The notes below the pieces were generated by a model. The model saw only the letters and a program-made list of their open reading frames with translations. It was not told the DNA's origin and did no database searches. A stretch of DNA of 64,000 nt, taken from assembly GCA_016782485.1 (NCBI GenBank), contig JADHYK010000001.1, positions 30,081 to 94,080 on the forward strand, in the 5' to 3' direction. The position numbers and the translations under genes are program-made. This stretch comes from Candidatus Omnitrophota bacterium (GTDB lineage: Bacteria; Omnitrophota; Gorgyraeia; Gygaellales; Profunditerraquicolaceae). This document shows, piece by piece, positions 2,167-56,050 of this stretch (its first letter is position 1; each line of letters begins with the position of its first letter).

Positions 2167-2949
2167 TTAGATTAATTTCTTTTGTATTCTTATAATTGAG
2201 TTGGCTTTGCCGGTCTTTTCGTCTATATCCAGTAATGCCCCCTGCAGCTGGATGTTATCTTGAGCAACTTCAAACCGCTGCGGGATGCAGCTGAGGAACC
2301 TTGCCAGGACATCCTCTATTCTTCTGCCGATTACGGAATCAAAGGGCCCGGCCATACCCGCATCCGTAAGGTAAGCTGTCCCCGCGGGTAAAATCCTTTC
2401 ATCGGCAGTCTGTACATGGGTATGTGTGCCGATTACCGCCGAAACCCTGCCGTCAAGATACCAGCCTAAAGCTATTTTTTCCGAAGTTGCTTCGGCATGC
2501 ATATCTACGATTATTACTTTGACCTGCGAAGATAAAGCCTCCTGGGCCTGGCGCGTGGTCCTGAAGGGGCATTCCAGCGGCTGCATAAAAACCCTGCCGT
2601 TGACATTTATCACCCCGGCCTTTAATCCGTTCTTTAAGGTGAAGACGGCATATCCGTAACCGGGCGCGCCCGGCGGAAAATTTACCGGCCGTAAAATCCT
2701 GCGTTCCTCTTCGATAAAATCAAAGATCTCCCTCTTCTTCCAGATATGGTCCCCCGAGGTAAGCACATCCACTCCGTAGCCAAACAACTCATCCGCGACG
2801 CTGCGGGTGATACCGGAGCCTCCTGCGACATTCTCGGCATTGGCAACCACGAAATCAATGCTATGCTCTTTTTGTAATACGGGCAGGAGTTTTCTTACCG
2901 CCTCCCTGCCCGGACTGCCTACTATGTCACCGATAAATAGTATCTTCAT
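2167..2949 (-). CDS. ymdB: YmdB-like metallophosphoesterase (2',3'-cyclic-nucleotide phosphodiesterase family, TIGR00282)
   Basis: MKILFIGDIVGSPGR...VVANAENVAGGSGIT...GDHIW signature. Lies immediately downstream of rny with a 4-nt overlap, as in Bacillus. Confidence 0.85.
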   Translation of the reverse strand: MKILFIGDIVGSPGREAVRKLLPVLQKEHSIDFVVANAENVAGGSGITRSVADELFGYGVDVLTSGDHIWKKREIFDFIEEERRILRPVNFPPGAPGYGYAVFTLKNGLKAGVINVNGRVFMQPLECPFRTTRQAQEALSSQVKVIIVDMHAEATSEKIALGWYLDGRVSAVIGTHTHVQTADERILPAGTAYLTDAGMAGPFDSVIGRRIEDVLARFLSCIPQRFEVAQDNIQLQGALLDIDEKTGKANSIIRIQKKLI

Positions 2950-4520
2950 TTTGCATACTCGATTGCTCGCGTCTCTCTAATAACTGTCACTTTAATCTGT
3001 CCGGGATACTCCATCCCCTCCTCTATTTTCTTGCGGATCTCCCGCGAAAGATTAATCGCTTCGGCATCAGTAATTTTTTCGGGCTGGACGATGACACGGA
3101 TCTCCCGTCCGGCCTGAATGGCAAAAGATTTTTCCACGCCCTTGAAAACATTGGCGATGGACTCCAGCTTCTCCAGCCGCTTTATGTAGGTCTCAAGTGT
3201 TTCACGCCTTGCCCCGGGCCGGGCAGCGCTTATCGCATCCGCAGCAACAGCCATCACCGCATAGAGGCTCTGGGGCGGAATCTCCTCGTGGTGCGCCTCA
3301 ATTGCCGCAACCACCTCTGCCGACTCATTATATTTTCTCGCCAGCTCCGCTCCGATTTTTGCGTGCGTACCCTCTATCTGATGGTCTACGGCCTTTCCGA
3401 TATCGTGCAACAATCCTATGCGCCGGCCGAGTTTAAAATCCAGCTTAAGCTCAGAGGCCATTCCCCCCAGAAGAAAGGAGACTTCCTTTGAGTGCTGCAG
3501 CGCATTCTGGCCGAAACTGGTGCGGTATCTGAGCCTCCCCAAAAGCTTTATCAGTTCCGGATGCAGTCCGCTGATGCCGATCTCAAACACCACCTTCTCG
3601 CCCTCTTCGCGGATCTTCTCCTCCATCTCTTTCTTGGTCTTTTCAACCACCTCTTCAATCCTTCCCGGGTGGATCCTGCCGTCGGAAATAAGCTTTTCCA
3701 AACTTAGCCGCGCAATCTCCCTGCGTACCGTATCAAAGGCCGAAAGGGTCACTGCCTCGGGGGTATCGTCTATAATCACATCCACCCCCGTAGCCATCTC
3801 AAGGGCGCGGATATTCCTGCCCTCCCTTCCGATCACCCTGCCCTTCATCTCATCGTTGGGCAGCGTAACCACGCTCACCGTTGACTCAACGGTATGTTCT
3901 GCGGCGCATTTCTGGATCGCCAGGCTGATTACCTCTCTTGCCTTCTTATCGACAGTGCTGCGCAAATCCTCTTCCTGCCTTTTAATGAGTATGGACTTTT
4001 CAACGTTTAATTCTTCGTTAATCCGGCTAAGCAGGATCTGTTTTGCCTCTTCCGCAGACAAAGAAGATATTTTTTGCAGCCGCTCCTTTTCTTCGGCAAT
4101 CAAAAGATGCAGCTGGTTATCCTTTGCCTTAAGGGAATCCTCCTGTCTTTTGACATTCTCCAGTTTGGCCTCAATTTCCTTTTCTTTGTTTTCCAGAAGA
4201 TCCAGCCGGCGGTTGATATTTTCTTCCTTGTGGGAGAGTCTTTTCTCCATCCCTGAGAGTTCCAGCCGCCGGTCTTTGGTCTCCCGCTCAAAATCCTGGC
4301 GCATCCTGTAAAGAAGGTCCTTTGCCTCCAGGTCCACTTCCCTGCGCCTGTCCTGGATCTCTTTTTTGGCCTGCTCGATAATCTGCCTGGCCTGGGTTTC
4401 GGCATCCTGAATTTTTCTTTCCGCCATATGTTTCCTCAGGAAATAACCTGAGCAGGCGGCAATCAAAGCAATTGCCCCGAATATAATTATATTTATCATC
4501 GCTGGATTAACCTCCTTCAA
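2946..4520 (-). CDS. rny: Ribonuclease Y
   Basis: N-terminal TM helix, long coiled coil, KH domain (GREGRNIRALEMATGVDVIIDD), HD domain (LLHDIGKAVDHQIEGTHAKIGAELARKY). Confidence 0.9.
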   Translation of the reverse strand: MKEVNPAMINIIIFGAIALIAACSGYFLRKHMAERKIQDAETQARQIIEQAKKEIQDRRREVDLEAKDLLYRMRQDFERETKDRRLELSGMEKRLSHKEENINRRLDLLENKEKEIEAKLENVKRQEDSLKAKDNQLHLLIAEEKERLQKISSLSAEEAKQILLSRINEELNVEKSILIKRQEEDLRSTVDKKAREVISLAIQKCAAEHTVESTVSVVTLPNDEMKGRVIGREGRNIRALEMATGVDVIIDDTPEAVTLSAFDTVRREIARLSLEKLISDGRIHPGRIEEVVEKTKKEMEEKIREEGEKVVFEIGISGLHPELIKLLGRLRYRTSFGQNALQHSKEVSFLLGGMASELKLDFKLGRRIGLLHDIGKAVDHQIEGTHAKIGAELARKYNESAEVVAAIEAHHEEIPPQSLYAVMAVAADAISAARPGARRETLETYIKRLEKLESIANVFKGVEKSFAIQAGREIRVIVQPEKITDAEAINLSREIRKKIEEGMEYPGQIKVTVIRETRAIEYAK

Positions 4521-5588: not shown

Positions 5589-6242
5589 TTATTTATTCAT
5601 TACCAGTTTATGCGGCCGGGTCGTCTTCTTAAAATCCTTTGCCGGCTGAATTTCTTTTATTTTCCCGATTTTATTTTTCTTTTCCAATTCTTTGTAAATT
5701 AAAACCCAGGCACAGTCTTTGTCTTTGTCCACTTCGCACTTGCCTTTATCTACGCCGCCGCAAGGCCCGTTTAATAACCCCTTGGAGCAAAGAGTAATCG
5801 GGCAGATCCCGGCGGTAATGCTCAAGACGCACTCGCCGCAGAGAGAGCACTTTTCATAGAAATCGCCCTGCGCATCCATTACTGCCCCGAAGACGGTATT
5901 TAAGGCGGGCAGGACCGTAAGCGATAATCTGTCGTTATCCTTTACCGACTGTACCCCCAGGCCGCAGGCCAAAACCAAGACCGCTTCGCATTCTCTTAAC
6001 GCTTTCATATTCCTGGCTAACTCGGCCTTTAATTTAGCCGCTACGCAGGGGGCCTCCGGCATACACGTACCGGTCACGACTTTGCCCTGCTTTTCTAACT
6101 CTGCCTTCATTGCGGCCAGCTCCGGCTCTCCGCCGGTCTTGGCAGTCGCCGCGCACTCCCCGCAACCCACCAGGAATATTTTTTTATATTCTTTGAGGCT
6201 CTCTAATATCTCCTTAAGCGCCTTCTTTTCGGTAATAATCAT
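5589..6242 (-). CDS. Cys-rich protein with a methylenetetrahydrofolate reductase C-terminal-like domain (MetV-like)
   Basis: GCGECAAT...[32 protein letters not shown] matches the MTHFR_C zinc-ribbon-like domain. Forms an operon with nifU and the 5-FCL gene. Confidence 0.5.
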
Positions 6243-6349: not shown

Positions 6350-9340
6350 TTATTCCTTCTTTTCGCGTTCCTTCTTCTCCGCAACAATCTTTTCGGCGAT
6401 TTCGGCGGGGACTTGCAGGTACTTGGAGAATTCCATGGAGGCGTTAGCACGGCCGCTGCTTAAAGAGCGGATATTGGTGGCGTATCCGAACATCTCCGCT
6501 AAGGGCACCTCTGCGGAGATGATTTTTTGTTTGCCTTTGGTGTCCATGTTCATTACCTTTCCCCGGCGGGAACAGATGTAGCCGACGATACTGTTCACAT
6601 ATTCCTCGGGGGTATTGACCTTAAGGGACATATAGGGCTCAAGGAGTGCCGGCTCGGCTTTCAGAAAGATCTCCTTGAATCCCAATATCGCAGCCATCTT
6701 GAAAGCAAGCTCAGAAGAGTCTACTTCATGATATGAACCGTCAATCAGGCTTACCTTAAGGTCCACTACGGGATAGCCGGCATAAACGCCCTTTTGCATC
6801 GCCTCTATCACGCCCTTTTCCACCGCCGGGATAAATGATTTCGGAATCGCGCCTCCTTTGATCTTATCTATAAATTCAAATCCCTCTCCTGCGCCGCTAG
6901 GGGCAATCTCCATTACCACATGGCCATATTGGCCCCTGCCGCCGGACTGTTTGATATATTTACCCTCTCCGGATGTCTTAGCCTTTATGGTCTCACGGTA
7001 GGCCACCTTCGGCTGGCTTACGTTTGCCTCGACACCGAACTCCTGCTTAAGCCTGTCCACGATAATTTCCAGATGCAGCTCGCCCATGCCGGTAAGCACG
7101 GTTTCCTTTGTCTCCTCATCGGTCTCCACAATAAATGTGGGGTCCTCCTGCGTCAGTTTGGCTAAACCCTTACCGAGCTTATCCTGGTCTGCACGGCTCT
7201 TCGGGCTGATACTAAGCGAAACCACGGGTACCGGAAATTCTATCGCCTCCAGAATAATCGGGTTGTCCATGCTGGAAAGCGTATCGCCGGTTATGGTATC
7301 GGTAAGCCCGATCACCGCCACAATATCTCCGGCGAATGCGCACTCAATATTTTCCTTCTGGTCGGCATGAACCTGCACCAGCCTGCCCACCCTTTCTTTT
7401 TTATCCCTGCTGGCATTAAGCACATAAGAACCGGTATTCAGGAACCCGGAATAAACCCTTACATAAACCAGCTTACCAATATGCTGGTCAGCCTGTAGTT
7501 TAAAAGCAACCCCGGAAAAGGGTTCGTTTATATCGGGCCTGCGTTGTATCTGTTTATCGGGGCTGCCGGGTTCATTGCCGCAAACCGAGGCTAAATCCGA
7601 CGGCGAGGGCAGGTATAAATTTACCGCGTCAAGCAGTTTCTGTATCCCTTTATTTTTAAAGGCCGCCCCGCACAACACAGGGACTGCCCTGTTGGCGATA
7701 GTGCCGCGGCGCAGCGCTTTTATTAACTCCTCCTGTGTAATCGAACCCTGCGACTCCAGGTATTTTTTAGTCAGGGCTTCGTCAAGGACAACAGCCTTTT
7801 CCAGCAGCAGATGCCGGTACTTATCGGCCTGCTCTTTACAATCTGCGGGGATATCTGCGACGCTAAACTCTTTACCCTGAGAGCCCTCGTCGTATATGTA
7901 GGCCTTCATCTCTATGAGGTCAATCACCCCTTTAAAACCGCCTTCTGCACCGATAGGGATCTGGAGCGCTAGTGTGTTGCCGCCGAGCTCCTGCTCAATG
8001 TCCGCTAAAACCGCGAAAAAATCCGCACCCACCCTGTCCATCTTATTGATAAATGCTATTTTGGGCACGTTGTATTTATTTGACTGGTGCCACACGGTTT
8101 CCGACTGCGGCTCCACCCCTCCGACGGCACAGAAGACCACTATTGCTCCGTCGAGAACTCGTAAGGAACGTTCGACCTCGACCGTAAAATCCACATGCCC
8201 CGGCGTATCGATAATGGAAATCCTGTGCTCCTTCCAGAAACAGGTAGTGGCCGCAGCGGTGATGGTAATGCCCCTTTCCTGCTCCTGCTTCATCCAGTCC
8301 ATCTGCGCCTTGCCATCGTGAACCTCCCCTATCTTGTGGGAACGGCCGGTATAAAATAAAATCCGCTCCGTCAGGGTAGTTTTGCCGGCATCGATATGCG
8401 CAATGATACCTATATTTCTGACCTTCTGCATATCAATGGACGGCGGTATCCGGGGTTTTTCCTCCTGCGCCTTCCCTGCTGTTTCCTCAGCTGGCGCCTG
8501 TTTTGGCTGCGGCTCCGGCTGTTTCTGCTCCGGCGGCTTGGCCTCGGGTGGCTGCGGCGGCGGCTCCGGTTGCGGCTTCTCTTCGACGGCCTTTGCCTCA
8601 ACTTCTTCCGCAGGAGGTTGTGCTGGTTTGGGCGGCTCCTTGGCCTTCTTGCTCAGCTGGCTCTTCAATAACACCAGCTCTTCCGCGTAGAGCTCCAGCT
8701 TCTTCTCCCTTTGCTCCAGCTCCTCTTCTAATTCCGTGTACTCCTGGTTTAACTTATTGAATTCTGCCTTTGGAATCCACTCGCTGTTTTCCTCTTTTTT
8801 TTTGAACTCTCTGATCGTCTCCAGGTGCGCCTTTATCTCCTGGGCATATTTTTCCAGCTGGTGCTTCTGGATCTCAACCTGCTCGGCTATGCTCTTTTTC
8901 TCCTGACTATGATCCTGCAACCCCTCTTTTAACTCGTTTATTTCCCGGGTCAGATTTATATTCTTGGTAAACTCCTCCTGCAGCTTTCTTTCCTGCTCGA
9001 GAAATTTATCGCGCAGCTGGGAGTTCTCCGCCCTGACTTTATCCAGCATCTGGTCGGACTTGGCAACCCAATCCTCTCTTCTGGTCAACTCCTCCTTTAG
9101 TTTTGGTTCTTTCACCTTCGCCGCCTCAAATGCTTTATGAATGTTGACGTAATCGCTCTTTACCCGGCTTAGTTCTAATTCTTTAGAGCGGACCTCTGCC
9201 TCCAGCCGCCGGGTCTTCTGCTCCCGGGGGTCAGGGCCGGATTTCCCGGGCTGTGCGCCGCCGCCGGAGAAGATGCCGTACAGGGCATAGGCCACCATAA
9301 ATATGCCCGAAAAAACCAGTATCTGAAAAATTATATTCAT
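6350..9340 (-). CDS. Elongation factor G homolog carried on a 303-aa N-terminal extension: TM helix, long coiled coil, Pro/Glu/Lys-rich linker
   Basis: Residues 304-996 are canonical EF-G ([24 protein letters not shown]...[40 protein letters not shown]...[10 protein letters not shown], domains II-V). Residues 1-303 are [24 protein letters not shown] (TM), then heptad-rich E/K sequence, then [22 protein letters not shown]. There is no in-frame stop between the two parts. An internal Met sits at 8431. Confidence 0.75.
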
Positions 9341-9348
9341 AGCATTAT

Positions 9349-10674
9349 TCAGGCCTGTTTCTTTTTCTGATGAGAATCCCGCAGCTTCTGCATCCTCTCT
9401 TTAATCTTGGCCTCAAAGCCGATCTCCGTAGGCTCGTAATAACGTACCGCCTTCCCGGTGTATTTCTGTTTCACATAATGGCCCGGGTAATCATGGGCAT
9501 ATTTATACCCCTTGCCGTGGCCCAGCTCTTCTGCCCCTTGATAAGAAGCATCCTTAAGATGGTCCGGCACCTCCTGGACCTTTTTTTGCTCTACATCCTG
9601 ATAGGCCTTCTCAATTGCCAGGTAACTTGCGTTTGATTTGGGGGCGCAGGAAACATAAATTACCGCCTGGGCCAGAGGGATCCTTGCCTCCGGCATGCCC
9701 ACAAATTCGCAAATCTGCACCGCCGCATTTGCTAAGACCAGGGCAAGCGGATCGGCATTACCTACGTCCTCCGCGGCCAGAATACAAACCCGGCGGGCGA
9801 TAAAACGCGGGTCCTCTCCTGCATAAAGCATCTTGGCCATCCAGTATAAAGCGCTGTCCGGGTCAGAGCCGCGCATTGATTTTATAAAAGCCGAGGCAGT
9901 ATCATAGTGGCCGTCCTCATCCCGGTCATAAAGAACCGCCTTTTTTTGTATTGACTCCGCTGCAACCGCTAAATCAAAATTAATCACTCCTTCTGCGCCG
10001 GCAGGCGTGGTCAACACCCCTACCTCAAGGGCATTTAAAGCCCGGCGCGCATCGCCTTCGCAGGTCTTGGCCAGGTGTTCCAGCGCCTTTTTGTCAATTT
10101 TGACCCTGAAGTTTCCCAGCCCCCTGTTTTTGTCGGTGAGGGCGCTGTTTAGTATCTTTAAAATATCCGCCGTATCCAAAGTCTTTAATTCGCAGACCAG
10201 CGACCTCGATAAAAGCGGAGAGGCAATAGAAAAATAGGGGTTGTGGACGGTGGCGCCGATTAACACCGGGTTGCCCGCCTCCACATCAGGCAGGAGCACA
10301 TCCTGCTGGGCCTTGTTAAAACGGTGGATTTCGTCGATAAAGAGGATTGTTCTTTTATTATTGCTTGAGCTCTTCACTTTGGCAGTATTGATAATCCGCC
10401 TCAGCTCCTCTACATTCGAGGTAGTGGCATTTATCGGGACGTAATAAGCTTGGCTTACATTGGCAATACACCAGGCCAGGGAGGTCTTGCCTACTCCAGG
10501 CGGGCCGTATAATATCAGTGAACTTATCCGGTCGGCTTCGATGGCGCGACGCAGCAGTTTACCCGGGCCTAAAAGGTGCTTTTGTCCGGCAAATTCAGCC
10601 AGGGTTACCGGCCGCATACGCAAGGCAAGGGGAAGGTCTTTGGAGTCGGAGGGCTTTTCGTTAAATAAATCCAT
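9349..10674 (-). CDS. rarA: Replication-associated recombination protein A (MgsA/RarA AAA+ ATPase)
   Basis: [15 protein letters not shown] Walker [17 protein letters not shown] Walker B/sensor, C-terminal MgsA helical domain. Confidence 0.9.
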
Positions 10675-11047: not shown

Positions 11048-13117
11048 TTAGCGCAACTTGGCGCTAAAAACTTCTTCCAGCAGCCTGCAGATCAGGCTAT
11101 GGACGGGGTTAACCTCTGCGTCGCTGAGTGTGCGTTCGCCGGAACGATAAAAACAGGAGATGGTCAGGCCGATATTGCCGGGAGGGATCTGGCTGCCCCG
11201 GTAATAATCCGCGACCTTCATACTGCAGAGAAGCGGCCGGCCTCTCTCCAGCGCCGCCTCCAACACCTTCTTTATCGGAACCTCCCTGCTCAATACCACG
11301 CTTATATCCCTGGTGATTCCCGGATATTTGGGGGGCGCGACAAAGGTCTTTGCCGGCCTGGCGTGGGCAAGGAGCCTGTCTAAATAAAGTTCGGCGGCAA
11401 CCACTTCTTTATTCTTGATATCCAACCTCTCTAAAAGCTCCTTGCGTAAAATAAAAATTTCGCCTGTTCTCTCCGTGCCGGCATAGATGCCGATCGAAGC
11501 AGCATTTTCTTTGGCATGAAAAGCGCAGCTACCCACTCCCAGCCTCTCGAATAATACCTCAACTATCCCTTTTAAATGCAGAAGCCCGAATCTTTCCTTA
11601 ACCAGGCCCTGGCCCAAAAGATGCGCCTTTGTCCCGCAGAGGGCTATGCCCAACATTAACTCTTCTTTTGGCCCGGAGGCGGAAGAAGAAAATACCTTTG
11701 CCAGCTCAAAAATATTCACGTACTCCTGCTGGTGATTAAGGTTATAGCCAATGCGCGCGGCAATACTCGGTACAAGATGCGGCCTCAAAACCTCCTGTTC
11801 CCTGCTAAGCGGATTCAAGATTCCGATCGGCTCAGGCTCATCCGGCAGCATAAAACCATTCAATAATTCCTTATCAACTAGTCCGTAGGTAATTGCCTCG
11901 CTCAATCCCAGTCCGGCAAGCATGTTCTTTAGCGCAGAGACCAGCTCCCTTTTTCCCGGGCGGAGTGAATGCGGCACTAAAAGCGGCAGGGTGGTAGGGA
12001 TTTTATCAAAGCCGTGTATCCGGGCTGTCTCCTCAACCAGATCTATCTGTGCCTTGATATCCTGCCTGTGCGAAGGAACTCCGGCTATAAAGCTATCCCT
12101 GCCAGTGGCTGCTACTTTAAACCCCAGGCCGATTAAAATCTTCTTTATCCTGGCGGGGGAGATCTTGGTTCCCAAAATCTTATTCGTATCCGCTACGCTC
12201 AGGCGGATGCTCTTTTGCTTCGCCCTGGCCTGGCCCGAACTCTTTGCCAAAATACATTCTCCCTGCGCCAAGGTGCGGATTAATTCTGCCGCGCAAGCGG
12301 AGGCAGGCCCAACCGCCCCCCAATCAATGCCTCGTTCAAACCTGTACGCCGAATCACTCTCTAGCTTTAGCTTTTGCCTTGCCTGACGCACGGTTATGGG
12401 ATTAAATACCGCTGCCTCTAAAAGGATGTTCCTTGTGCCGTCGGATACTTGCGTGTCGTTACCGCCCATGATGCCTGCGATTGCTACCGGCCCTCCTTTA
12501 TCTGCAATAACCAGGATGCCCTTATCCAGCAGCCGCTCCTCTCCGTCGATGGTAACGATCTTTTCCTGCTCTTTTGCCCGGCGTACATATATCTCTGCCG
12601 CCGCGTTTTGAGCTAATCTGTCTAAATCAAAGGCATGTAAAGGCTGGCCCCTCTCAAACAAAAGGTAATTAGTGATATCCACAACGTTGTTTATGCTGCG
12701 GCAACCGACGAGCTCCAGCCTTTCTTTAAGCCAGGCAGGCGAAGGCCCCACTTTTACATCTTTGATTATCTTTGCGGTGTATAAAGGACAGCCTTTTTTG
12801 TCCTCAATATTTATTTTTAATATGTTAGCGTTTAGCGGATAGCGTTTAGCGTATAGGCGACCTTTACTATGCGCTCTACGCTCTACGCTATACGCTCGAA
12901 TTTTCTTATTAGTAATTGCCGCCACTTCTCTTGCGATGCCGATAATGCTTAAACAATCCGGGCGGTTAGAGGTCACCTCTATCTCAAAGACAAAATCTCC
13001 TGCCTGCTTTTGGAGCGCAACCACCTCCAGCCCTGCCATGGTCAGCCTCTCAGCAAGCGCCTCTGCCGCCAGATCGATCCTTACAAACTCCTTCAACCAA
13101 TTATAGGTTACTTTCAT
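11048..13117 (-). CDS. pheT: Phenylalanine--tRNA ligase beta subunit (short form, 689 aa) carrying an in-frame repeat insertion
   Basis: tRNA-binding, B3/4, B5 and FDX-ACB domain patterns. Residues AYSVERRAHSKGRLYAKRYPLNA are encoded by the 70-bp repeat. Confidence 0.9.
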   Translation of the reverse strand: MKVTYNWLKEFVRIDLAAEALAERLTMAGLEVVALQKQAGDFVFEIEVTSNRPDCLSIIGIAREVAAITNKKIRAYSVERRAHSKGRLYAKRYPLNANILKINIEDKKGCPLYTAKIIKDVKVGPSPAWLKERLELVGCRSINNVVDITNYLLFERGQPLHAFDLDRLAQNAAAEIYVRRAKEQEKIVTIDGEERLLDKGILVIADKGGPVAIAGIMGGNDTQVSDGTRNILLEAAVFNPITVRQARQKLKLESDSAYRFERGIDWGAVGPASACAAELIRTLAQGECILAKSSGQARAKQKSIRLSVADTNKILGTKISPARIKKILIGLGFKVAATGRDSFIAGVPSHRQDIKAQIDLVEETARIHGFDKIPTTLPLLVPHSLRPGKRELVSALKNMLAGLGLSEAITYGLVDKELLNGFMLPDEPEPIGILNPLSREQEVLRPHLVPSIAARIGYNLNHQQEYVNIFELAKVFSSSASGPKEELMLGIALCGTKAHLLGQGLVKERFGLLHLKGIVEVLFERLGVGSCAFHAKENAASIGIYAGTERTGEIFILRKELLERLDIKNKEVVAAELYLDRLLAHARPAKTFVAPPKYPGITRDISVVLSREVPIKKVLEAALERGRPLLCSMKVADYYRGSQIPPGNIGLTISCFYRSGERTLSDAEVNPVHSLICRLLEEVFSAKLR
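12827..12896 (-). mobile_element. 70-bp imperfect-palindromic element inserted in frame in pheT. Identical (70/70) to the copy in pyrK
   Basis: On the coding strand AGCGTATAGCGTAGAGCGTAGAGCGCATAGTAAAGGTCGCCTATACGCTAAACGCTATCCGCTAAACGCT. The 5' 30 nt and 3' 30 nt are about 80% reverse-complementary around a TAAAGGTCGCC core. Confidence 0.8.
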
Positions 13118-25540: not shown

Positions 25541-25747
25541 CTACCTACGCGAACCTCCTTTGTCTTCAATCACGCTTACCCTTACTTTCGCAGGCTTTGC
25601 ACCCTCCATCCCAAAAAGGCCCTTTTCCTCTTCAGAGAGTATCTCAATTTTGGCTTGATTGCGCGTCAGCCTTAATTCTCTAAGTGCTTTATTTATCGCC
25701 TCTTCAACGGTCTTGCCTTCAATTTCGATACTTTTTTTTGGGCTCAT
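25541..25747 (-). CDS. Stand-alone Jag/KhpB N-terminal-domain protein (no KH/R3H part)
   Basis: 68 aa. IEIEGKTVEEAINKALRELRLTRNQAKIEILSEE..GLFG resembles Jag_N. Sits in the canonical jag slot downstream of yidC. Confidence 0.45.
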   Translation of the reverse strand: MSPKKSIEIEGKTVEEAINKALRELRLTRNQAKIEILSEEEKGLFGMEGAKPAKVRVSVIEDKGGSRR

Positions 25748-27267
25748 TTTGAATGCCGGATACGAAACTGATACGCTGTCATCAACGTGCTATTGATTAA
25801 CCAATATAACACCAGGCCTGAAGGCATGTGATAAAAAATAAAACCGAACATAACCGGGAAGATGATCACCATCATCTTCTGTTGACCTGCCGTACTACTG
25901 CCTGCAGACACCATAGACATCTTCTGTTGAAAAAACATACCTATCGCCATAATAATAGGTAAGATATTGATTTCATTGCCCAGAATTGGCAAGGCATTTG
26001 GTAAGATAAATAAGCGATCAGGCTCTGATAAGTCCTTGATCCATAAAAAGTTAGCACCTTTCAGGGCAACCGAACGCATCAACGCTTGATAAAGGCCGAA
26101 AAAAATCGGCATCTGTAAGAGCAAGGGCAAACAGCCGCCAAAGGGATTTACTTTATGCTGTTTATATAATCCCATGATTTCTTTATTTAATTTTTGCGGA
26201 TTATCCTTGTAGGTTTTGCGTAATTCTTCAATGTGGGGTTGCAACGCCTGCATCTCTTTCATGGAGCGCATCTGTTTTAACGTGAGCGGGAACAATATAA
26301 GATAAACCGCAATGCTCAAGATAATAATCGCCCAGCCCCAATTATGCACTAAACCATAAAAGAGCCTCAACAACTGTAAAAGAATCTGCGAGATAAAATC
26401 AAAGAAGCCATAATTAATCACCGATGACCAGGCTGGATTAAGGCTGTTCATAATTCCTATGTCTTGTGGTCCCAAATAGATATGATATTTTTGCCCAAGC
26501 TGTTGCCCGGGGGCCAGCACCATTTTACCAACAGACAATACGATTTCGCTCTCCTTAGAATTTAATCTACGAATTAATACCGAACAATTTTTTGACTCCG
26601 GCTCAACTAGCAGGCAAAAGTACCTGTCGCGTAAAGCCACAAATTGGGCGTTCTCATAACCTACATCTTTGCGGCCGGTGCTATGCAGGCTTTTTTCTGT
26701 CGTTTTAATTGTTAAGCCGAGGTATCTGGTATTAAGGCTGTTGGTGGAAAAGTCTAAAACCCCCAGGATAATCGGAAGATCGACTGTGATGGTATCTGTA
26801 GAGGCATTCTGTACCTTCAATTCCATCCAAAAATCGTATTTTGAACCAGTTAAGCCAATAAAATCTTTTACAATCTTTTTATTATTGCCAGATTGGACAA
26901 ATCGAATCTCCCCAGCAGGGCTACTGGTTCTTTTAAATACCAGTGACGCATCATCAATTAACAATCCGGATTGTAACGGGAAGATATATTTTTGGTGGCC
27001 GTTAAAGCAGACTTCTTTGATCGCCCCTTTTTCTTCTATAAAAATTAACTCCTCTTGACCCCTGGTGTATTTAAATAACGACTGTTCAGCCGGAGCGGTT
27101 GTAGGTAAAGTCTGTGCAGGGGCATCCTTTGTCCCCGCTATAACCGGAGTGAATTGTCCCATTGTAACTACTTTGTTTACAACAGGATCTGGTTTTTGAA
27201 CCAATGCTGACCAGGCCAATAAAACCAATAACGATAAACTTAAGGCTAAAATAAATCGCTTACCCAT
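25744..27267 (-). CDS. yidC: Membrane protein insertase YidC
   Basis: N-terminal TM, large periplasmic domain, conserved C-terminal core GGCLPLLLQMPIFFGLYQAL. Confidence 0.9.
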   Translation of the reverse strand: MGKRFILALSLSLLVLLAWSALVQKPDPVVNKVVTMGQFTPVIAGTKDAPAQTLPTTAPAEQSLFKYTRGQEELIFIEEKGAIKEVCFNGHQKYIFPLQSGLLIDDASLVFKRTSSPAGEIRFVQSGNNKKIVKDFIGLTGSKYDFWMELKVQNASTDTITVDLPIILGVLDFSTNSLNTRYLGLTIKTTEKSLHSTGRKDVGYENAQFVALRDRYFCLLVEPESKNCSVLIRRLNSKESEIVLSVGKMVLAPGQQLGQKYHIYLGPQDIGIMNSLNPAWSSVINYGFFDFISQILLQLLRLFYGLVHNWGWAIIILSIAVYLILFPLTLKQMRSMKEMQALQPHIEELRKTYKDNPQKLNKEIMGLYKQHKVNPFGGCLPLLLQMPIFFGLYQALMRSVALKGANFLWIKDLSEPDRLFILPNALPILGNEINILPIIMAIGMFFQQKMSMVSAGSSTAGQQKMMVIIFPVMFGFIFYHMPSGLVLYWLINSTLMTAYQFRIRHSK

Positions 27268-27284
27268 TTATATTATAACCATTT

Positions 27285-27500
27285 CTATTCCAGCGGGTCA
27301 TAACCGCTTTTAGTTGAAAAGGGATGGCAGCGTAAAAGCCGTATCAGGGCCTTGCCGCCTCCTTTAAAAAAACCGTATCTTAAAACCGCTGCCTTTGCAT
27401 ACTCGGAGCAGCTGGGCGAAAAACGGCATGCCTGGGGCAATAATGCCCTGATATATCTTTGGTAAAAAGTAATAAAATAAAGCGCAACTCTCCCCGGCAT
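27285..27500 (-). CDS. yidD: Membrane protein insertion efficiency factor YidD
   Basis: CRFSPSCSEYA...HPFSTKSGYDP. 71 aa. Confidence 0.85.
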   Translation of the reverse strand: MPGRVALYFITFYQRYIRALLPQACRFSPSCSEYAKAAVLRYGFFKGGGKALIRLLRCHPFSTKSGYDPLE

Positions 27501-27637
27501 TAGCGGCTGATTCTTTTTCTTCCCTTTTTACGCCTGCGCGCCAATATTGCTTTACCGCAACGGCTCTGCATCCGGTTGCGGAAACCATGCCGTCTTTTGC
27601 CAACGATATTGGTAGGGGTCTTGAGGTTCTTTTTCAT
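27500..27637 (-). CDS. rpmH: 50S ribosomal protein L34 (below the 60-aa cutoff; its TAA shares one base with the yidD ATG)
   Basis: [52 protein letters not shown] 8 nt upstream. No rnpA between rpmH and yidD. Confidence 0.8.
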
Positions 27638-28049
27638 AAAAGATCTGCTCCTGCAAAGTGGTTAATCAACCCTGGATTAATGTTTAAAAATTGTAGCACA
27701 GAAAAATGCGGCGGTCAAGAAAACAAATGGGATAGGTAGTTGCAAAACCGGCCCGCGGTTTAAATCCCGGGTTTTTTCGACGACAACCGCATAGATCGGC
27801 CCCCCGGCATTGCTTAAATTTTTTTGCACAACCGCGCCCGGGATATCCCCAAGACCGCTTTTTCTGTTGACGCTTATGGAAATTGTTGTATAATAGCTGA
27901 CGCTTTCAAGGAGCCTTCATCAGGGCTTATCTTTTTTGCTTGCAACCTCTTTGGTCTCTGTTATAATTATCGTACGCAGCCTGCGGGTATACCATTGGGG
28001 TTTTCCACAGATTTATACAAGGTGTGAATAAACTGTTAATTCTTTAGAT
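27638..28049. promoter_or_regulatory. oriC: Origin-proximal rpmH-dnaA intergenic region: divergent promoters and DnaA boxes
   Basis: TTTTCCACA at 28001..28009 and TGTGAATAA at 28023..28031 (8/9 to TTATCCACA and its complement). TTGACG-16-TATAAT at about 27867..27894. Strand-bias switch at this point. Canonical rpmH|dnaA arrangement. Confidence 0.6.
27690..27718 (-). promoter_or_regulatory. Sigma70-like promoter for rpmH (TTGACC-17-TACAAT)
   Basis: Minus-strand sequence CTTGACCGCCGCATTTTTCTGTGCTACAATTTTT about 55 nt upstream of the rpmH ATG. Confidence 0.5.
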
Positions 28050-29375
28050 ATGTCTGAAATACTGAAGGCTTGGGAGTTGGCGCAGAGCCAGTTGAGAAAC
28101 AGGCTGGGTGAGACGGTTTTTGAAACCTGGATTTTACCTTTAAAGCCGCGATTTAAAGACGGCTCCTGTGTAATACTGGAGGCGCCGGATAAATTCTTTA
28201 AGGAATGGGTAGAAAGCCACTACAGCCAGTCGATCCAGGAGGCGCTAAATTCGCTAAGCCCGGTAAGTATTACGGTTGACCTGCGCGCCTGCCCACCCAA
28301 AGAGGGCGGGGCCCCGGCAAGGACACAGACCCAGCAGATAAAACCGCCGGAGTCACTCCACCTAAACTCCCGCTACACCTTTGAAAATTTTATTACCGGC
28401 CCTTCAAACCGCCACTCACATGCCTACGCTTTAGCAGTTGCAAATTCTCCTGCCAAGGCGTATAACCCGCTGTTTATTTACGGCGGGGTGGGGCTGGGCA
28501 AAACCCACCTGATACAGGCTATTTGCCATCACGTTATTAACAACGCCCCGGGTAAATTAAAGATCTGTTACCTACCCTCTGAGCGGTTCACGAATGAGCT
28601 TATCGACGCCATTCAACATCACTCTACTGCCGCCTTCCGGCAAAAGTATAGGAACGTGGATGTTTTAGTGCTTGACGACATCCATTTTATCGCCGGTAAA
28701 GAATCAACGCAGGAGGAGTTCTTCCATACTTTCAATACCCTTTACGATGCCCACAAACAAATTATTTTTTCTTCTGACCGGCCGCCGAAGGAGATAGCTA
28801 ATTTACAAGACAGGCTAGTGTCGCGCTTTGGCTGGGGGCTCACTACAGACGTTCAGCCACCGGATCTGGAGACGCGCGTAGCCATTCTGAAGAAAAAAAT
28901 AGAGCGCGAGCCGGTGACGGTCCCGGATGAGGTTATCTTCTTTATAGCGCAGTTGATCAAAACCAACATCCGGGAGCTGGAGGGGGCGCTGATACGTACA
29001 ATAGCGTACTCGCTGCTGGAGGAAAAGGTAATTAACCTGGAGTTGGCCAAGGAGGCGCTGAAAGACCTTTTAAGGGAGCCGCAAAAACTGATTACCGTAG
29101 ATTTTATTCAGCGCTGTGTTGCCGAGGAGTTCGGGCTTTCTTTGCAGGAATTAAAAACAAAACGCCGCAATAAAACAATCGTGCTGCCACGTCAGATAGC
29201 AATGTATTTAAGTAGGTCTTTGACAGACCTGTCTTTTCCGGAAATTGGGGAGCTTTTCGGGGGGAAGGACCATACAACCGTCTTACATTCATACAATAAG
29301 ATTAAAGGTGAATTAAATAAGAACGAACCGCTGAAAGAAAGGGTGGAAAGGGTTATACAGGTTGTTAAACAATAA
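28050..29375 (+). CDS. dnaA: Chromosomal replication initiator protein DnaA
   Basis: LFIYGGVGLGKTHL Walker A, VLVLDDIHF, domain IV KTKRRNKTIVLPRQIAMYL. Confidence 0.95.
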   Translation: MSEILKAWELAQSQLRNRLGETVFETWILPLKPRFKDGSCVILEAPDKFFKEWVESHYSQSIQEALNSLSPVSITVDLRACPPKEGGAPARTQTQQIKPPESLHLNSRYTFENFITGPSNRHSHAYALAVANSPAKAYNPLFIYGGVGLGKTHLIQAICHHVINNAPGKLKICYLPSERFTNELIDAIQHHSTAAFRQKYRNVDVLVLDDIHFIAGKESTQEEFFHTFNTLYDAHKQIIFSSDRPPKEIANLQDRLVSRFGWGLTTDVQPPDLETRVAILKKKIEREPVTVPDEVIFFIAQLIKTNIRELEGALIRTIAYSLLEEKVINLELAKEALKDLLREPQKLITVDFIQRCVAEEFGLSLQELKTKRRNKTIVLPRQIAMYLSRSLTDLSFPEIGELFGGKDHTTVLHSYNKIKGELNKNEPLKERVERVIQVVKQ

Positions 29376-33375: not shown

Positions 33376-36300
33376 ATGTATACGCAAAACGAAAAAATCA
33401 TCCCGGTTTGTATCGAAGAAGAGGTAAAGGACTCGTATTTAAATTACGCCATGAGCGTTATCGTCGGCCGCGCCCTGCCCGATGTACGCGACGGCTTAAA
33501 GCCGGTGCATCGCAGGATCCTTTATGCGATGCGGGAGCTGGGCCTTGAACACAGTAAGCCCTATAAGAAATGCGCGCGTATCGTGGGCGATACAATGGGC
33601 CGTTTCCACCCGCATGGAGACGTTGCGATATATGATACGATAGTAAGAATGGCGCAGGATTTTTCCCTGCGCTATCCGTTGGTTGATGGCCAGGGAAACT
33701 TTGGCTCAATCGACGGCGACGCCGCTGCGGCCATGCGCTATTGCATAACGGGAGACGCCTTTATTATTACGAATCAAGGCTTACGCAGAATAGACGAGGT
33801 TCCCCATCATTCAAAAACCAGTTTCTTCACGCTCTCAGCGGGTAATAAAATAAATCATGTTTCACAATGGTTTGATTCTGGGGAGCATCCGACAAAGAGA
33901 ATTTCTACATTCAGAGGTTTTAGTCTATGCGGCAGCTTGAACCACCCTATTCTTATATGGCAGAAAAATGGCCTAAAGCCAAAATTCGTATGGAAATTAT
34001 TAAACCAGGTAAAGGTCAATGACTATGCTGTGATAAGCAGGAGTGATGCATTATTCCCTATAAAAGAGCCTTCGCTTAAAGAGTATTATCCAGAAGATAA
34101 AAATCGAAGACAAAAACACGTGCTCCCTAGCGTTATGAACGAAGATCTCGCCTTCATTTTAGGGGCCATAGTTGCGGAGGGCTCTATAAGCAAGGAGCAA
34201 ATTGGTTTCTGTAACGGGGATGAAGAGTTTATTAAAAAATATAAATTGAGCTTCAAAAGGACATTTCCCGATTGTCGTCTCCATGAGTTCGTAAGAAAGC
34301 CGTTAGGGTTTGGTAAGAGGAATTGCACTTACTTAGAGATTCATTCAAGGCAGGTTATTGGATTTTTAAAAAATTTGGGGCTGCGTCAAGCCCGGGCCCA
34401 AGTAAAAACTACGCCTTCTATAGTTTTTTCTTCTTCAAAACAATCAGTTGGCGCTTTTATTAGCGGTTATGCCGAAGGAGATGGAAGCATTTGTATTGGC
34501 AAAAGAAATCCAGACATAAGTTTTATATCAACGAGCGAAAAATTAATCCAAGAACTACAGATTCTGCTATTAAGGTTTGGCATAGATTCTTCCTACAGGT
34601 TTCATAAACAAAAAAAATACTTTAGGTTGTTTATAAGAGGCCATGAGAACCTAAACTTATTTAAAAATCAAATAGGTTTTGTTACAGAAAGCAGTTGTAG
34701 AAGATTAGCAGATATTTGCAGTCGGAATAGCGATGGTTGGGTGATGTCAAAGTTAGACTTTGTACCTTATTTAGCGGACTACATTCGAAGGAAGGCCGCA
34801 AGGCAAAGAAGGAAATATTGGGGGCACATAGAGTGGCTTAAGAAACACAACATTGACAGATACCCAAAAATAGAAAAAATTTGGCCTAGACTAAAACGTA
34901 TTCTCGACAGAGAAGATCGCGATCTGCTTGATGCAGTAATAAAAAATAGATATATCTTTGACAAAATTACTTCTGTAGAAGATTCTGAAAAAAAGAGAGT
35001 TTATTCTATTAAAGTCGATAGTCCTTGTCACTCCTTTGTATCAAACGGTTTTATAAGTCATAACACTGAGGCTCGGCTTGCCGCAATCTCCGACGAGATG
35101 TTAGCGGATATTGACAAGGATACGGTGAATTTCGGGCCGAATTTTGACGCGTCTTTATCCGAGCCGCTTTTATTGCCGGCGGCTTTGCCCAATCTCTTGG
35201 TCAACGGCTCCAGCGGTATAGCAGTGGGCATGGCTACGAATATCCCTCCGCATAATTTAACGGAAGTAGTCGAGGCGATTATTTGTCTGCTGGATAATCC
35301 GGCGGCAGAGGTTAAAGAGCTGATGCATTATATAAAGGGGCCGGATTTTCCGACGGGAGGGATAATCTGCGGCCGGGGCGGCATTAAAGATGCCTATACT
35401 ACGGGCAAGGGTAAGCTTTTGGTGCGGGCGCGCGCTACCGTCGAGCATCAGAAGGGCGGCAAGGATTTGATTGTGATCACCGAAATTCCCTATCAGGTGC
35501 AGAAGGCCGGCGTCATTGAGGCGGTAGCGGAACTTGTAGAGGAGAAAAAGATAGAGGGGATTTCCGATATACGCGACGAATCCGATAAGGAAGGAATGCG
35601 CATCGTGGTTGAGCTTAAGCGCGATGCGGATTCGCAGATTGTCTTAAACCAGCTTTACAAGCATACGCAGCTTGAGGCTACTTTCGGCGTTATTATGCTG
35701 GCGCTGGTTGAGAACAGGCCCCGGATTTTGAACCTGCGCCAGACGCTCGAGCTATATATCGGGCACCGCAAGGTTATTATCCGCCGGCGCACGAGTTTCG
35801 AGCTGGATAAGGCGTTAAAGAGGGCGCATATACTTGAGGGGTTAAAGATCGCCCTTAAGTATATCGACCGCATCATCAAGGCAATCAAGACTTCCGCGAA
35901 TACCCAGATTGCCAAAGAGCGCCTGATGAAAGAGTTCGGGCTTTCCCAGATTCAGGCCCAGGCGATATTGGAGATGCAGCTGCAGCGCCTGACCGCGCTT
36001 GAACGCGACAAGATAGACGCCGAATACGCGGAGCTGCTTAAAAAAATCGAATTATGCAAGGCGATACTTGCCTCTGAAAAGAAGATAGAGGGCATTATTA
36101 AGGAAGAGCTGGGAGAGCTGAAGAAGAAATACGGCGATGAACGCAGGACGGAGATAATCGGCGAAGTGCAGGAGCTGGAGATAGAGGATTTAATCGCGGA
36201 AGAGGATGTGGTGGTGATCATCAGCCACGGCGGTTATATTAAACGCCTGCCGGTCAGCTCTTACCGCAAGCAGAAGAGGGGGGGCCGCGGCGCAACCGGC

Positions 36301-37128
36301 GCCGAAGTTAAAGAGGAGGATTTTATCGAGCATATTTTTGTCGCCTCCACCAAAGACCACGTTTTAATTTTTAGCGAAAAGGGCCAGGTACACTGGCTGA
36401 AGGTTTACGAGATCCCCCAGGCCAGCCGCATCTCCAAGGGCAAGGCGATAATCAACCTTATAGATATAACCCCGGGCTCCAAGATTAGCTCAACCATCCC
36501 GATCAGGGAGTTTTCCGGAGACAACTATCTGGTGATGTTGACCAAAAAGGGCCAGATTAAAAAGACCAGATTGGATGCCTACAGTAATCCGCGCAAAGGC
36601 GGGATTATCGGAATTACGCTGGAGAAGGACGATGCGCTGATCGCCGTGGAACTTACCGACGGTAAACAGGAGTTGCTGATCGGCACGCGCCAGGGCAAGG
36701 CCCTGAGGTTCCCCGAAAGCAAAGTCAGGGATATGGGCAGGGCGGCGCGGGGGGTGCGCGCGATTTCCCTGGCCAAACAAGACGAGGTCATCGCGATGGT
36801 ATTGGCGCGTAAGGATGCGACCATACTTACGGTTACGGAATTAGGGTATGCCAAACGCACTTCGGCGGATGAATACCGGCTTACCAGCCGCGGAGGTAAG
36901 GGCATTATTAACATAAAGGTTACCGCTAAAAACGGCGAGGCGGTCAGCCTGAAGTCGGTCAGCGACAAGGATGAGTTGATGGTGATTACCCAAAACGGGG
37001 TATTTTTGCGCTGTGCGGTCAAAGACATCCGCTCAAGCGGCAGGTCTTCACAGGGGGTGCGCCTGATTAAGCTGCAGGGCAAGGACCATGTCTCATGCGT
37101 TGCCCGGGTAATTGCCGAAGAAGGATAA
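33376..37128 (+). CDS. gyrA: DNA gyrase subunit A interrupted by a 441-aa intein immediately after the catalytic Tyr
   Basis: Exteins: ...GDAAAAMRY(122) | intein | [13 protein letters not shown]... 809 aa without the intein. C-terminal beta-pinwheel repeats present. Confidence 0.95.
33742..35064 (+). mobile_element. GyrA intein with a LAGLIDADG homing-endonuclease domain
   Basis: Begins Cys ([12 protein letters not shown]), block B GSLNHPIL, two LAGLIDADG motifs ([14 protein letters not shown]; [15 protein letters not shown]), ends ...VSNGFISHN followed by +1 Thr. 1323 nt in frame. Confidence 0.85.
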
Positions 37129-55519: not shown

Positions 55520-56050
55520 TTGCCCGCTTATTACACTTATTTAGTCGCCAGTTTACCCTCTCTTGTTTTCGGGTCAGAGCCGCCTTTTTCCTTTCAGGGT
55601 TTTCTTAATCTCTGCCGGCCGCTTATACCCGAAGCAGGTTTTAATCTCCTGCAGCACTCAGATAACGGCAACCAGCCTACCTTGCAAAAGTGGCTTGAGT
55701 TTGACACCGCCTTAAGGAACGAACTGGTCAAGATCAGGGCTGCCCGTAAGAAAATTGACCCGGAAAAATACCTGCGCCGCGACGGTTTTGTGGACCCGCA
55801 GATCAGCCACAGCGCTATAAACGCTTACAGAAACCCCTCGCCCCTTGAGGGAGAAATGATGCTGGATCAGGCGCGCTGGCGCCTGTTAGATGAACTTTGT
55901 GCGGGGCATTATTTTGACCTGGACCTCCTGATAATCTATGCGCATAAATTATTGATACTGGAACGCTGGCAAAGGATTAAATCCGCGGATAGCCCTGCCT
56001 TATTAGAGGGGCTGTTAGAAAAAGGATCGCAATGGCAGAGAAGAGGATAG
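55520..56050 (+). CDS. Conserved hypothetical protein in the V-ATPase operon (DUF2764-like, as in Chlamydia/spirochaete operons)
   Basis: 176 aa, in the same operon position as the hypothetical gene between atpE and atpA in Chlamydia-type V-ATPase loci. Confidence 0.35.
   Translation: MPAYYTYLVASLPSLVFGSEPPFSFQGFLNLCRPLIPEAGFNLLQHSDNGNQPTLQKWLEFDTALRNELVKIRAARKKIDPEKYLRRDGFVDPQISHSAINAYRNPSPLEGEMMLDQARWRLLDELCAGHYFDLDLLIIYAHKLLILERWQRIKSADSPALLEGLLEKGSQWQRRG

Follow-up and report, generated by a model that had tools for sequence, protein, structure and literature searches.

Is elongation factor G (EF-G), generally treated as a freely diffusing cytoplasmic factor, anchored to the membrane in some bacteria, or does a reading frame that suggests so merely run through two neighbouring genes? 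The question is raised by a 64,000-nucleotide stretch of DNA, hereafter called the window, from Candidatus Omnitrophota bacterium (assembly GCA_016782485.1, contig JADHYK010000001.1, positions 30,081 to 94,080 of the forward strand). A single open reading frame (ORF) of 996 aa occupies 6350..9340 on its minus strand, from an ATG at 9340 to a TAA at 6350-6352, and an earlier note, made from the letters alone, had described it as a complete EF-G following an N-terminal extension with a transmembrane (TM) helix, a coiled coil and a proline-rich linker. The ORF, its Pfam and TIGR00484 matches, the hydropathy and heptad periodicity of the extension and an AlphaFold2 model all bear out this description, and the comparison with relatives indicates that the fusion is genuine, of long standing and maintained by selection. 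The parts of the protein are the following.

9269..9337, minus strand: N-terminal TM helix, residues 2-24, with invariant Tyr18 (hydropathy, AlphaFold)
9230..9268, minus strand: short disordered juxtamembrane segment, residues 25-37 (AlphaFold pLDDT <50)
8786..9229, minus strand: coiled-coil helix 1, residues 38-185, one unbroken predicted helix of 148 residues (AlphaFold; heptad period 3.50, z = 13.2)
9053..9079, minus strand: first conserved Trp motif, REDWVAKSD, residues 88-96 (alignments)
8738..8794, minus strand: family signature motif, residues 183-201, sitting at the predicted helix break 186-190 (15-sequence module alignment)
8648..8770, minus strand: coiled-coil helix 2, residues 191-231 (AlphaFold; heptad z = 5.2)
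8450..8647, minus strand: disordered linker rich in Pro, Glu, Lys and Ala, residues 232-297, 66 aa (AlphaFold, relatives)
8429..8431, minus strand: Met304 codon, start of the NCBI 693-aa 'elongation factor G', not kept as a start in relatives
6350..8449, minus strand: complete EF-G moiety, residues 298-996 plus stop (Pfam, TIGR00484, 1dar alignment)
Within it, minus strand, the EF-G subdomains (Pfam): G 7604-8425, II 7271-7522, III 7016-7237, IV 6653-7012, V 6389-6646

The AlphaFold2 model, which was built on 84 full-length homologues and has a mean pLDDT of 72, presents a helix at residues 2-24, disorder at 25-37, a long helix at 38-185, a break at 186-190 and a second helix at 191-231; residues ~231-300 are disordered (pLDDT 31-42), and the EF-G fold begins at ~301.

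The EF-G moiety can be assigned to the canonical type of the family. Pfam places GTP_EFTU at residues 306-579, D2 at 607-690, III at 702-775, IV at 777-896 and C at 899-984, all above their cutoffs, with no domain match in residues 1-303. The EF-G equivalog model TIGR00484 scores 1025.8 bits against a cutoff of 659.4, with positions 5-690 of its 691 lying on residues 302-990, and the EF-G of Thermus thermophilus (1dar) aligns end to end with the moiety, which keeps the P-loop, switch II, NKMD and HEVDSS motifs and both tip loops of domain IV. Across 84 fused proteins most residues of the GTPase motifs and domain-IV tips are invariant, the remainder being conserved in at least 90%. We regard residues 298-996 as a canonical-type EF-G that is presumably catalytically competent. 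The earlier suggestion of an EF-G2 or spirochaete type had to be abandoned, since the canonical model is passed and both EF-G2 models fail (NF009377, 528.3 vs a cutoff of 890; NF058620 of Bacteroidota, 482.7 vs 1000), and the T. thermophilus EF-G-2 homologue 1wdt reaches 417 bits vs 851 for 1dar. A tetracycline ribosomal protection protein was likewise rejected (NF012153, 393.9 vs a cutoff of 775).

Is the junction between the two parts then a peculiarity of one genome? Searches with residues 1-303 retrieved homologues in Omnitrophota only, several of which continue into RNIGI(I/M)AHIDAGKTT. An alignment of the window's N-terminal module with 14 homologues that are 36-54% identical to it, containing 20 invariant columns (alignment A1), was then used in scans that gave 132 species-representative genomes and >143 metagenome contigs, of which 80 of each were kept. 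Already in a first pass 105 of 165 loci ran in frame into the G domain, and the final counts were these.

GTDB species representatives, 80 Omnitrophota loci: 57 fused, 22 standalone, 0 split, 1 undetermined
Metagenome contigs, 80 loci: 57 fused, 18 standalone, 1 split, 4 undetermined

Full fused ORFs in the relatives span ~990-1,080 aa. Among 91 unique fused homologues, the frame of the N-terminal extension contains no stop in 30,151 codons, vs 2,066 and 2,414 stops in the two alternative frames. At least three genomic neighbourhoods harbour the fusion, namely the rarA locus, a dnaG-rpoD locus (L168) and a polyprenyl synthase/UbiA locus (L205), and it is present also with very divergent modules (proteins P0174, P0205 and P0210/P0281). 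The same architecture is thus found in >100 Omnitrophota loci, where the earlier note had advised looking for it. The alternative which that note had left standing, of two genes read together after loss of a stop, does not withstand >100 independent loci fused in frame through unrelated linkers; a stop between the two parts, as two separate genes would have it, was found in one species only, where it follows from an indel of 1 nt in a poly-A run, as seen against a fused sibling.

This split species (L001, L002 = L153, L003) has A8 in the linker where its sibling L160 has A7, with EF-G in the +1 frame, and its module ORF ends at a TGA 8 nt before an in-frame TTG of EF-G (L001 10900-10960). The additional A could reflect a genuine splitting of the gene, a site prone to slippage or an error in the homopolymer, and it is possible that related samples underlie all three assemblies. 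Other irregularities concern single contigs. In L004 (= L128, one contig) an in-frame TAG at 11176-11178 replaces the conserved Tyr of the G-domain motif ILFYTG of an otherwise intact fused gene, the possible causes being sequencing error, pseudogene formation or recoding, while on the metagenome contig L088 module codon 59, within the coiled coil, is a stop (RLEE-stop-VKALE) in an otherwise full-length fused ORF. Past its linker, protein P0006 (JGI, 345 aa) reads the EF-G G domain in reverse-strand translation, which indicates the chimeric end of a contig with an inverted join; this contig lies outside the sets of loci compared. These exceptions are isolated and leave the overall picture of the fusion unchanged.

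Two further observations were made on the assemblies. The metagenome-assembled genome JAZDPH01 carries two distinct fused genes on its contigs 10 and 52 (L005 and L019), with modules 72% and 44% identical to that of the window; either the bin is mixed or the gene is present twice. Among the 16 contigs that end inside the fused gene, a disproportionate number (5-6) break in the G domain within its first ~65 codons (L011/L096, L067, L104, L147 and L158; partial proteins P0004, P0005 and P0012), a situation that fits an assembly-graph tangle with a near-identical EF-G belonging to a paralog or a related strain.

What does the extension add to the EF-G? Its N-terminal 19-mer has a Kyte-Doolittle mean with a median of 2.49 in the 91-92 unique fused proteins, and 1.05 is not exceeded by any further segment ahead of the G domain. 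On its N-terminal side this helix has an uncharged flank devoid of basic residues, whereas a median of five Lys or Arg is counted in the 20 residues that follow; by the positive-inside rule, the predicted topology is therefore N-out/C-in, with the body of the protein in the cytoplasm. A cleaved signal peptide was considered and rejected, because a basic n-region is missing, the basic residues lie past the helix and ribosomes and GTP are accessible only to a cytoplasmic body. The hydrophobic periodicity of residues 38-231 peaks at exactly 3.50 residues (z = 15 against shuffles), which argues for an amphipathic heptad coiled coil; a charged single α-helix in its place is ruled out by the same period (z = 13-15). 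The resulting stalk of ~190 residues would measure ~28 nm when fully extended, as estimated arithmetically at ~0.15 nm per residue. Beyond it, the linkers of the relatives comprise 44-131 aa (median 77) with a composition of 25% E, 16% P, 12% K and 11% A, and they are hypervariable and cannot be aligned between lineages, yet remain in frame. Pro300, just ahead of EF-G's own N-terminus, is kept in at least 90% of the 84 full-length fusions.

The N-terminal module is a protein family in its own right. It matches no Pfam or NCBIfam family above cutoff and gives only non-specific coiled-coil matches; ZapG/YhcB, EzrA and RNase Y (PF12072) were tried as possible families and remained below threshold (ZapG-like, E = 0.65 and 0.015; RNase_Y, E = 0.22 on a relative). 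Two motifs characterize the family, (R/K)xEWVAKSE and SEW(V/I)PKxEFNxLNxEY. In the first, V92 is invariant in the 15 module sequences and W91 in the 84 full-length fusions, each being kept in at least 90% of the other alignment; in the second, E183, E187, W188, P190, K191, F194, N195, L197, N198 and E200 are invariant in the 15-sequence alignment and Y201 is nearly so. The module of the window has both motifs together with the N-terminal TM helix, its invariant Tyr and the heptad coiled coil. A profile of the module searched against 1.84 billion representatives matched 326 proteins, 179 of them at E <= 1e-10, and the ten matches that were looked up all came from Omnitrophota-labelled or other metagenomic sources. 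On these sequence comparisons, the module is a new membrane coiled-coil family specific to Omnitrophota.

The standalone forms suggest how the fusion arose. Distant members of the family are tailless proteins of ~225 aa that combine TM helix and coiled coil with an EW(V/I)(S/A)K.E(Y/F) motif at the C-terminal end; the single example looked up (P0250) has unrelated neighbours, with no EF-G among them. In the 22 standalone species the module has its own stop and an E/K/P-rich tail of 0-150 aa; downstream of it comes PPIase-UvrD or, directly, DUF5981. In a neighbour-joining tree of rarA and the module, all 11 standalone species that could be placed fall into one clade, which branches from within the fused diversity; the loci of this clade have no EF-G and retain the linker-like tail. 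The simplest history is that an old standalone module became fused to an EF-G gene, that the fusion spread and that one subclade later lost its EF-G.

How, then, would such a protein work? In our preferred reading, to which we give even chances on the basis of the sequences and the structural model, the ORF is translated from Met1 as one membrane-tethered EF-G of ~110 kDa, likely to be second to the fusA of a str operon. The N-terminal helix would insert into the cytoplasmic membrane, leaving the rest of the protein in the cytoplasm, and the heptad coiled coil of ~190 residues would form a stalk, probably oligomeric, from which the acidic, Pro-rich disordered segment of 44-131 residues would extend as a flexible leash with the EF-G at its end. 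Such a tether may concentrate EF-G activity, in translocation and/or recycling, within a few tens of nm under the membrane, the probable target being ribosomes that make membrane or secreted proteins during co-translational insertion or secretion. The fused protein would most likely act as a second EF-G beside the canonical one of the str operon. The Protein Data Bank contains chimeras in which L9 is joined to the N-terminus of EF-G (4wpo, 4wqf, 4wqu, 4wqy, 5hau and 6ucq). We take these to be ribosome-bound complexes, and attachment at the N-terminus should therefore not block ribosome binding.

Properties of the phylum invite an extension of this scheme. Most Omnitrophota cells measure ~0.2 μm (Seymour et al. 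2023, PMC10066038), so that the stalk and leash would reach a substantial part of the cytoplasm, and giant proteins are abundant in the phylum, 94% of them having TM helices or signal peptides (Nielsen & Lui 2026, bioRxiv 10.64898/2026.06.07.730766). A dedicated membrane-proximal elongation factor for the hours-long synthesis of giant proteins at the translocon is an attractive idea. We consider it possible, at well under even chances, that the tethered EF-G is either the main or only translocase of cells with membrane-organised synthesis or a paralog that supplies translocon-docked ribosomes making giant proteins; if either were true, bacteria would exert spatial control of elongation by anchoring a core factor. 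More generally, a conserved anchored EF-G would mean that translocation and recycling capacity is localised to the membrane, in part or entirely, throughout a bacterial clade, and it opens the questions of how elongation is laid out in ultra-small cells, how membrane-bound ribosomes are supplied with factors and how giant secreted proteins are synthesized.

Several observations weigh against our preferred reading. The gene lies ~20 kb from the replication origin (oriC), on the leading strand and among the translation genes thrS-infC-rpmI-rplT-pheST, a position that suits a primary housekeeping EF-G, and motif scans for EF-Tu, S12 and S7 found no str operon in the window or in the 164 loci scanned. 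The window itself has an ATG at residue 304, from which free EF-G may arise by internal initiation in this genome. Moreover, one species splits the gene by a 1-nt indel and one subclade does without the EF-G part altogether, so the tether is not indispensable.

The strongest of the other explanations, which we hold to be possible though clearly less probable than the one preferred, is that the fused gene encodes the only EF-G of the cell and that translation is organised within leash distance of the membrane in cells of ~0.2 μm. The moiety is canonical by every sequence test, its gene occupies the place near oriC just described, the fusion has been kept in >100 lineages and a stalk of ~28 nm with its leash could, by arithmetic, reach a large share of the cytoplasm. 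Against this stands the nested subclade, which has deleted EF-G at this locus and therefore must use another one, and no relocated ortholog appears among the closest relatives of the fused EF-G. These relatives, ~175 distinct proteins retrieved with two queries, apparently include none that is genuinely unfused: among their short entries, the four whose loci were read proved to be trimmed, and the rest begin at the junction motif or at an internal one. The second query was the EF-G of L038, which branches next to the standalone clade; this search too gave no unfused ortholog, the sister clade being 81-84% identical and all else 74-78%. Canonical operons also speak against a sole EF-G, since complete chromosomes of Omnitrophota (Gorgyraeia) are reported to carry S12-S7-EF-G-EF-Tu-S10 (Nielsen & Lui 2026, bioRxiv 10.64898/2026.06.07.730766).

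The rate of evolution points in the same direction, with the EF-G part changing slightly faster than its neighbours: its median identity to the window is 73.9%, compared with 77.1% for RarA, 78.2% for NifU and 83.4% for RNase Y, and in 42 of 47 paired loci it falls below RarA. Conservation below that of neighbouring genes is, in our experience, unusual for a sole housekeeping EF-G. Two other sources were of no help in counting EF-G genes: a viral-contig collection in which canonical Omnitrophota EF-G was sought yielded only EF-Gs of <=54% identity, which were not usable, and the supplementary KO tables of Seymour et al. (2023, PMC10066038) give presence or absence rather than copy number. Altogether, we find it rather probable that a second, canonical fusA is present in addition to the fused gene. 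The proposal of a specialised EF-G2-type paralog made in the earlier note survives in this respect only: a paralog is compatible with the nested loss of EF-G, the str operons of the phylum and the lower conservation relative to RarA, and the EF-G2 type falls with its failed models.

Less probable, and in our judgement unlikely, is that the protein serves as a precursor, from which a protease cutting the disordered linker frees EF-G, so that the fusion would couple synthesis or regulated release to the membrane module. A long, exposed and disordered linker would be accessible to proteases, the conserved Pro300 before the EF-G N-terminus could mark a boundary and the proteins of the standalone clade end in linker-like tails. 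However, the fused relatives compared have no conserved cleavage motif in their hypervariable linkers, no dedicated protease is conserved in the neighbourhood of the fusion, and Pro/Glu-rich linkers are typically protease-resistant spacers.

It is improbable, at a lower level still, that the gene has two products, the full-length protein and a free EF-G initiated internally at Met304. This possibility takes its appeal from the ATG at 8431..8429 in the window and from the annotation, because NCBI calls a 693-aa EF-G from that codon (MBL7151005.1, our P0017, 'elongation factor G', 100% identical to fusion residues 304-996); in the split species, moreover, the TGA situated 8 nt before the TTG of EF-G would allow reinitiation. 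The relatives nevertheless argue otherwise. In 95 unique junctions the codon equivalent to Met304 is TTA 38 times, CTG 27, TTG 10, CTT 6, CTA 4, ATG 3, ATT 3 and CTC 2, that is, mostly a Leu codon that is no start, and in the closest relative (L005) it is ACG, encoding Thr. An ATG, GTG or TTG occurs within 15 codons upstream of RNIGI in 32 of 106 junctions, and an ATG in six; none of the 106 has a start codon with a motif resembling a Shine-Dalgarno sequence 4-11 nt upstream, compared with 35 of 89 true module starts, and the window's own Met304 codon has its nearest GGAGG ~27 nt upstream. Scans for promoters and terminators found nothing convincing inside the fusion ORF, the best promoter-like site lying upstream of rarA. 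The internal Met to which the earlier note had drawn attention is therefore where that note placed it, but its role as a conserved start is not upheld. Instead, the junction consensus P-x-P-[KR]-[YIF]-x-L-[ED]-K-x-RNIGIM corresponds to EF-G's own N-terminus minus its Met, resembling the N-terminus of Bacillus subtilis EF-G, which presumably reads MAREFSLEKTRNIGIM.

Among the closest EF-G relatives, the NCBI entries of ~690-720 aa begin at the Leu position or within the linker, and some of the starts chosen fall on CTG or TTA Leu codons, which indicates model-guided trimming rather than true starts. Several NCBI 'EF-G' genes of ~695 aa are preceded by 0.9-1.2 kb of unannotated DNA (L165-L167, 5026-6001; L168, 4895-6001; L205, 4937-6133; L206, 6064-7001), and where this DNA was read, in L165, L168, L205 and L206, it contains the membrane/coiled-coil module uninterrupted and in frame. 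Callers of the Prodigal type (JGI, ENA, Logan) give ~1,000 aa for the fused genes. The choice of start by NCBI thus looks like a systematic trimming artefact; as it leaves an EF-G of normal length next to ~1 kb of apparently 'intergenic' DNA, the architecture cannot be seen in NCBI's named records or in analyses that depend on them.

About as improbable, and marginally more so, is the proposal that the EF-G moiety acts mainly as a head sensing GTP or ribosomes, which regulates the membrane function of the coiled-coil module, instead of as a translocase. The module is indeed the older and independent family with invariant motifs of its own, and the EF-G part does evolve somewhat faster than its neighbours, but the catalytic and domain-IV tip motifs required for translocation are all retained, many of their residues being invariant in 84 fused proteins. 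Finally, a sequencing or assembly error or a recent stop loss that merged two genes has hardly any probability left, for the single-contig defects of L001 (+1 indel), L004 (TAG), L088 (stop) and P0006 (chimera) that might suggest it are set against >100 independent assemblies, from different projects and assemblers, which have the same in-frame fusion with different linkers and already refute it.

The tethered EF-G that we prefer is embedded in a conserved neighbourhood, of which the immediate members are these.

9349..10674, minus strand: rarA, an MgsA-type AAA+ ATPase, directly upstream with an 8-nt gap; adjacency kept in most relatives
5589..6242, minus strand: DUF5981 gene (MTHFR-C-like), the conserved downstream neighbour, followed by nifU, 5-formyltetrahydrofolate (5-FTHF) cyclo-ligase and RNase Y

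The start codon of the fusion ORF stands 8 nt past the TGA of rarA without an obvious Shine-Dalgarno sequence, and the two genes are probably co-transcribed. Gene calls and the motif scans agree with the earlier placement of the gene outside a str operon, between a folate/Fe-S cluster and rarA. The close clade shares the order pheS-pheT-rarA-[module(-EF-G)]-(PPIase-UvrD)-DUF5981-nifU-5-FTHF ligase-RNase Y; in the split species only, a 276-aa LAGLIDADG-like ORF is found between nifU and the 5-FTHF cyclo-ligase gene (L001 14194-15024, L002 11397-12227).

Further along the window, yidC (25744-27267, minus strand) and dnaA (28050-29375, plus strand) diverge from a probable oriC at ~27300-28050, with dnaN, gyrB and gyrA following; the sign of the GC skew is reversed at ~28 kb, in the interval from yidC to dnaA. 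The gyrA gene (33376-37128, plus strand; 1,250 aa) has a LAGLIDADG/intein-splicing insertion at ~residues 156-563. A catalytic subunit of an A/V-type ATP synthase is encoded at 56032-57786 on the plus strand, and ORFs at ~53-62 kb may complete its operon.

Full-text literature searches retrieved no report of a transmembrane-anchored EF-G, nor is a membrane-anchored EF-G mentioned in the Omnitrophota genome papers of Seymour et al. (2023, PMC10066038) and Nielsen & Lui (2026, bioRxiv 10.64898/2026.06.07.730766). Comparison with known systems nevertheless offers partial parallels.

RNase Y, encoded in the same cluster (window 2946..4520, minus strand, ~2 kb downstream), has the same succession of TM helix, coiled coil and enzyme, by which an enzyme of the RNA machinery is kept at the membrane; its N-terminal module has no detectable relationship to that of the fusion (TIGR03319, E = 0.22 on a module relative), and it lacks a long disordered linker. 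TonB and TolA have one N-terminal TM helix and a spacer rich in PE or PK that positions a distant C-terminal domain. The layout of the fusion is similar, but its predicted topology is the opposite, with a cytoplasmic body where TonB and TolA have a periplasmic one, and there is no homology. Among translation-related GTPases, FtsY is localised to the membrane and LepA/EF4 is reportedly stored there, and the membrane-binding N-terminal region of FtsY (A domain) is long, acidic and of low complexity; both belong to GTPase families other than that of the fused EF-G and have other functions. The L9-EF-G chimeras likewise carry a foreign protein on the N-terminus of EF-G, but are artificial and tethered to a ribosomal protein.

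Closer still are the EF-Gs themselves. The specialised paralogs, such as EF-G-2 of T. thermophilus, EF-G2 of Bacteroidota and the EF-G1/EF-G2 pair of spirochaetes and mitochondria, which divides translocation and recycling between its members, would share with the fusion the status of an extra copy outside the str operon, and a division of labour is conceivable here too; by sequence the fusion belongs to none of them, and to our knowledge none is anchored in the membrane. With canonical EF-G (FusA; 1dar/4v5f) the fused protein has in common the five domains, a score above the equivalog cutoff, the G motifs and the tips of domain IV, and it differs in the 297-residue N-terminal extension that replaces EF-G's own start codon, in its location outside the rpsL-rpsG-fusA-tuf operon and in evolving slightly faster than the housekeeping genes around it.

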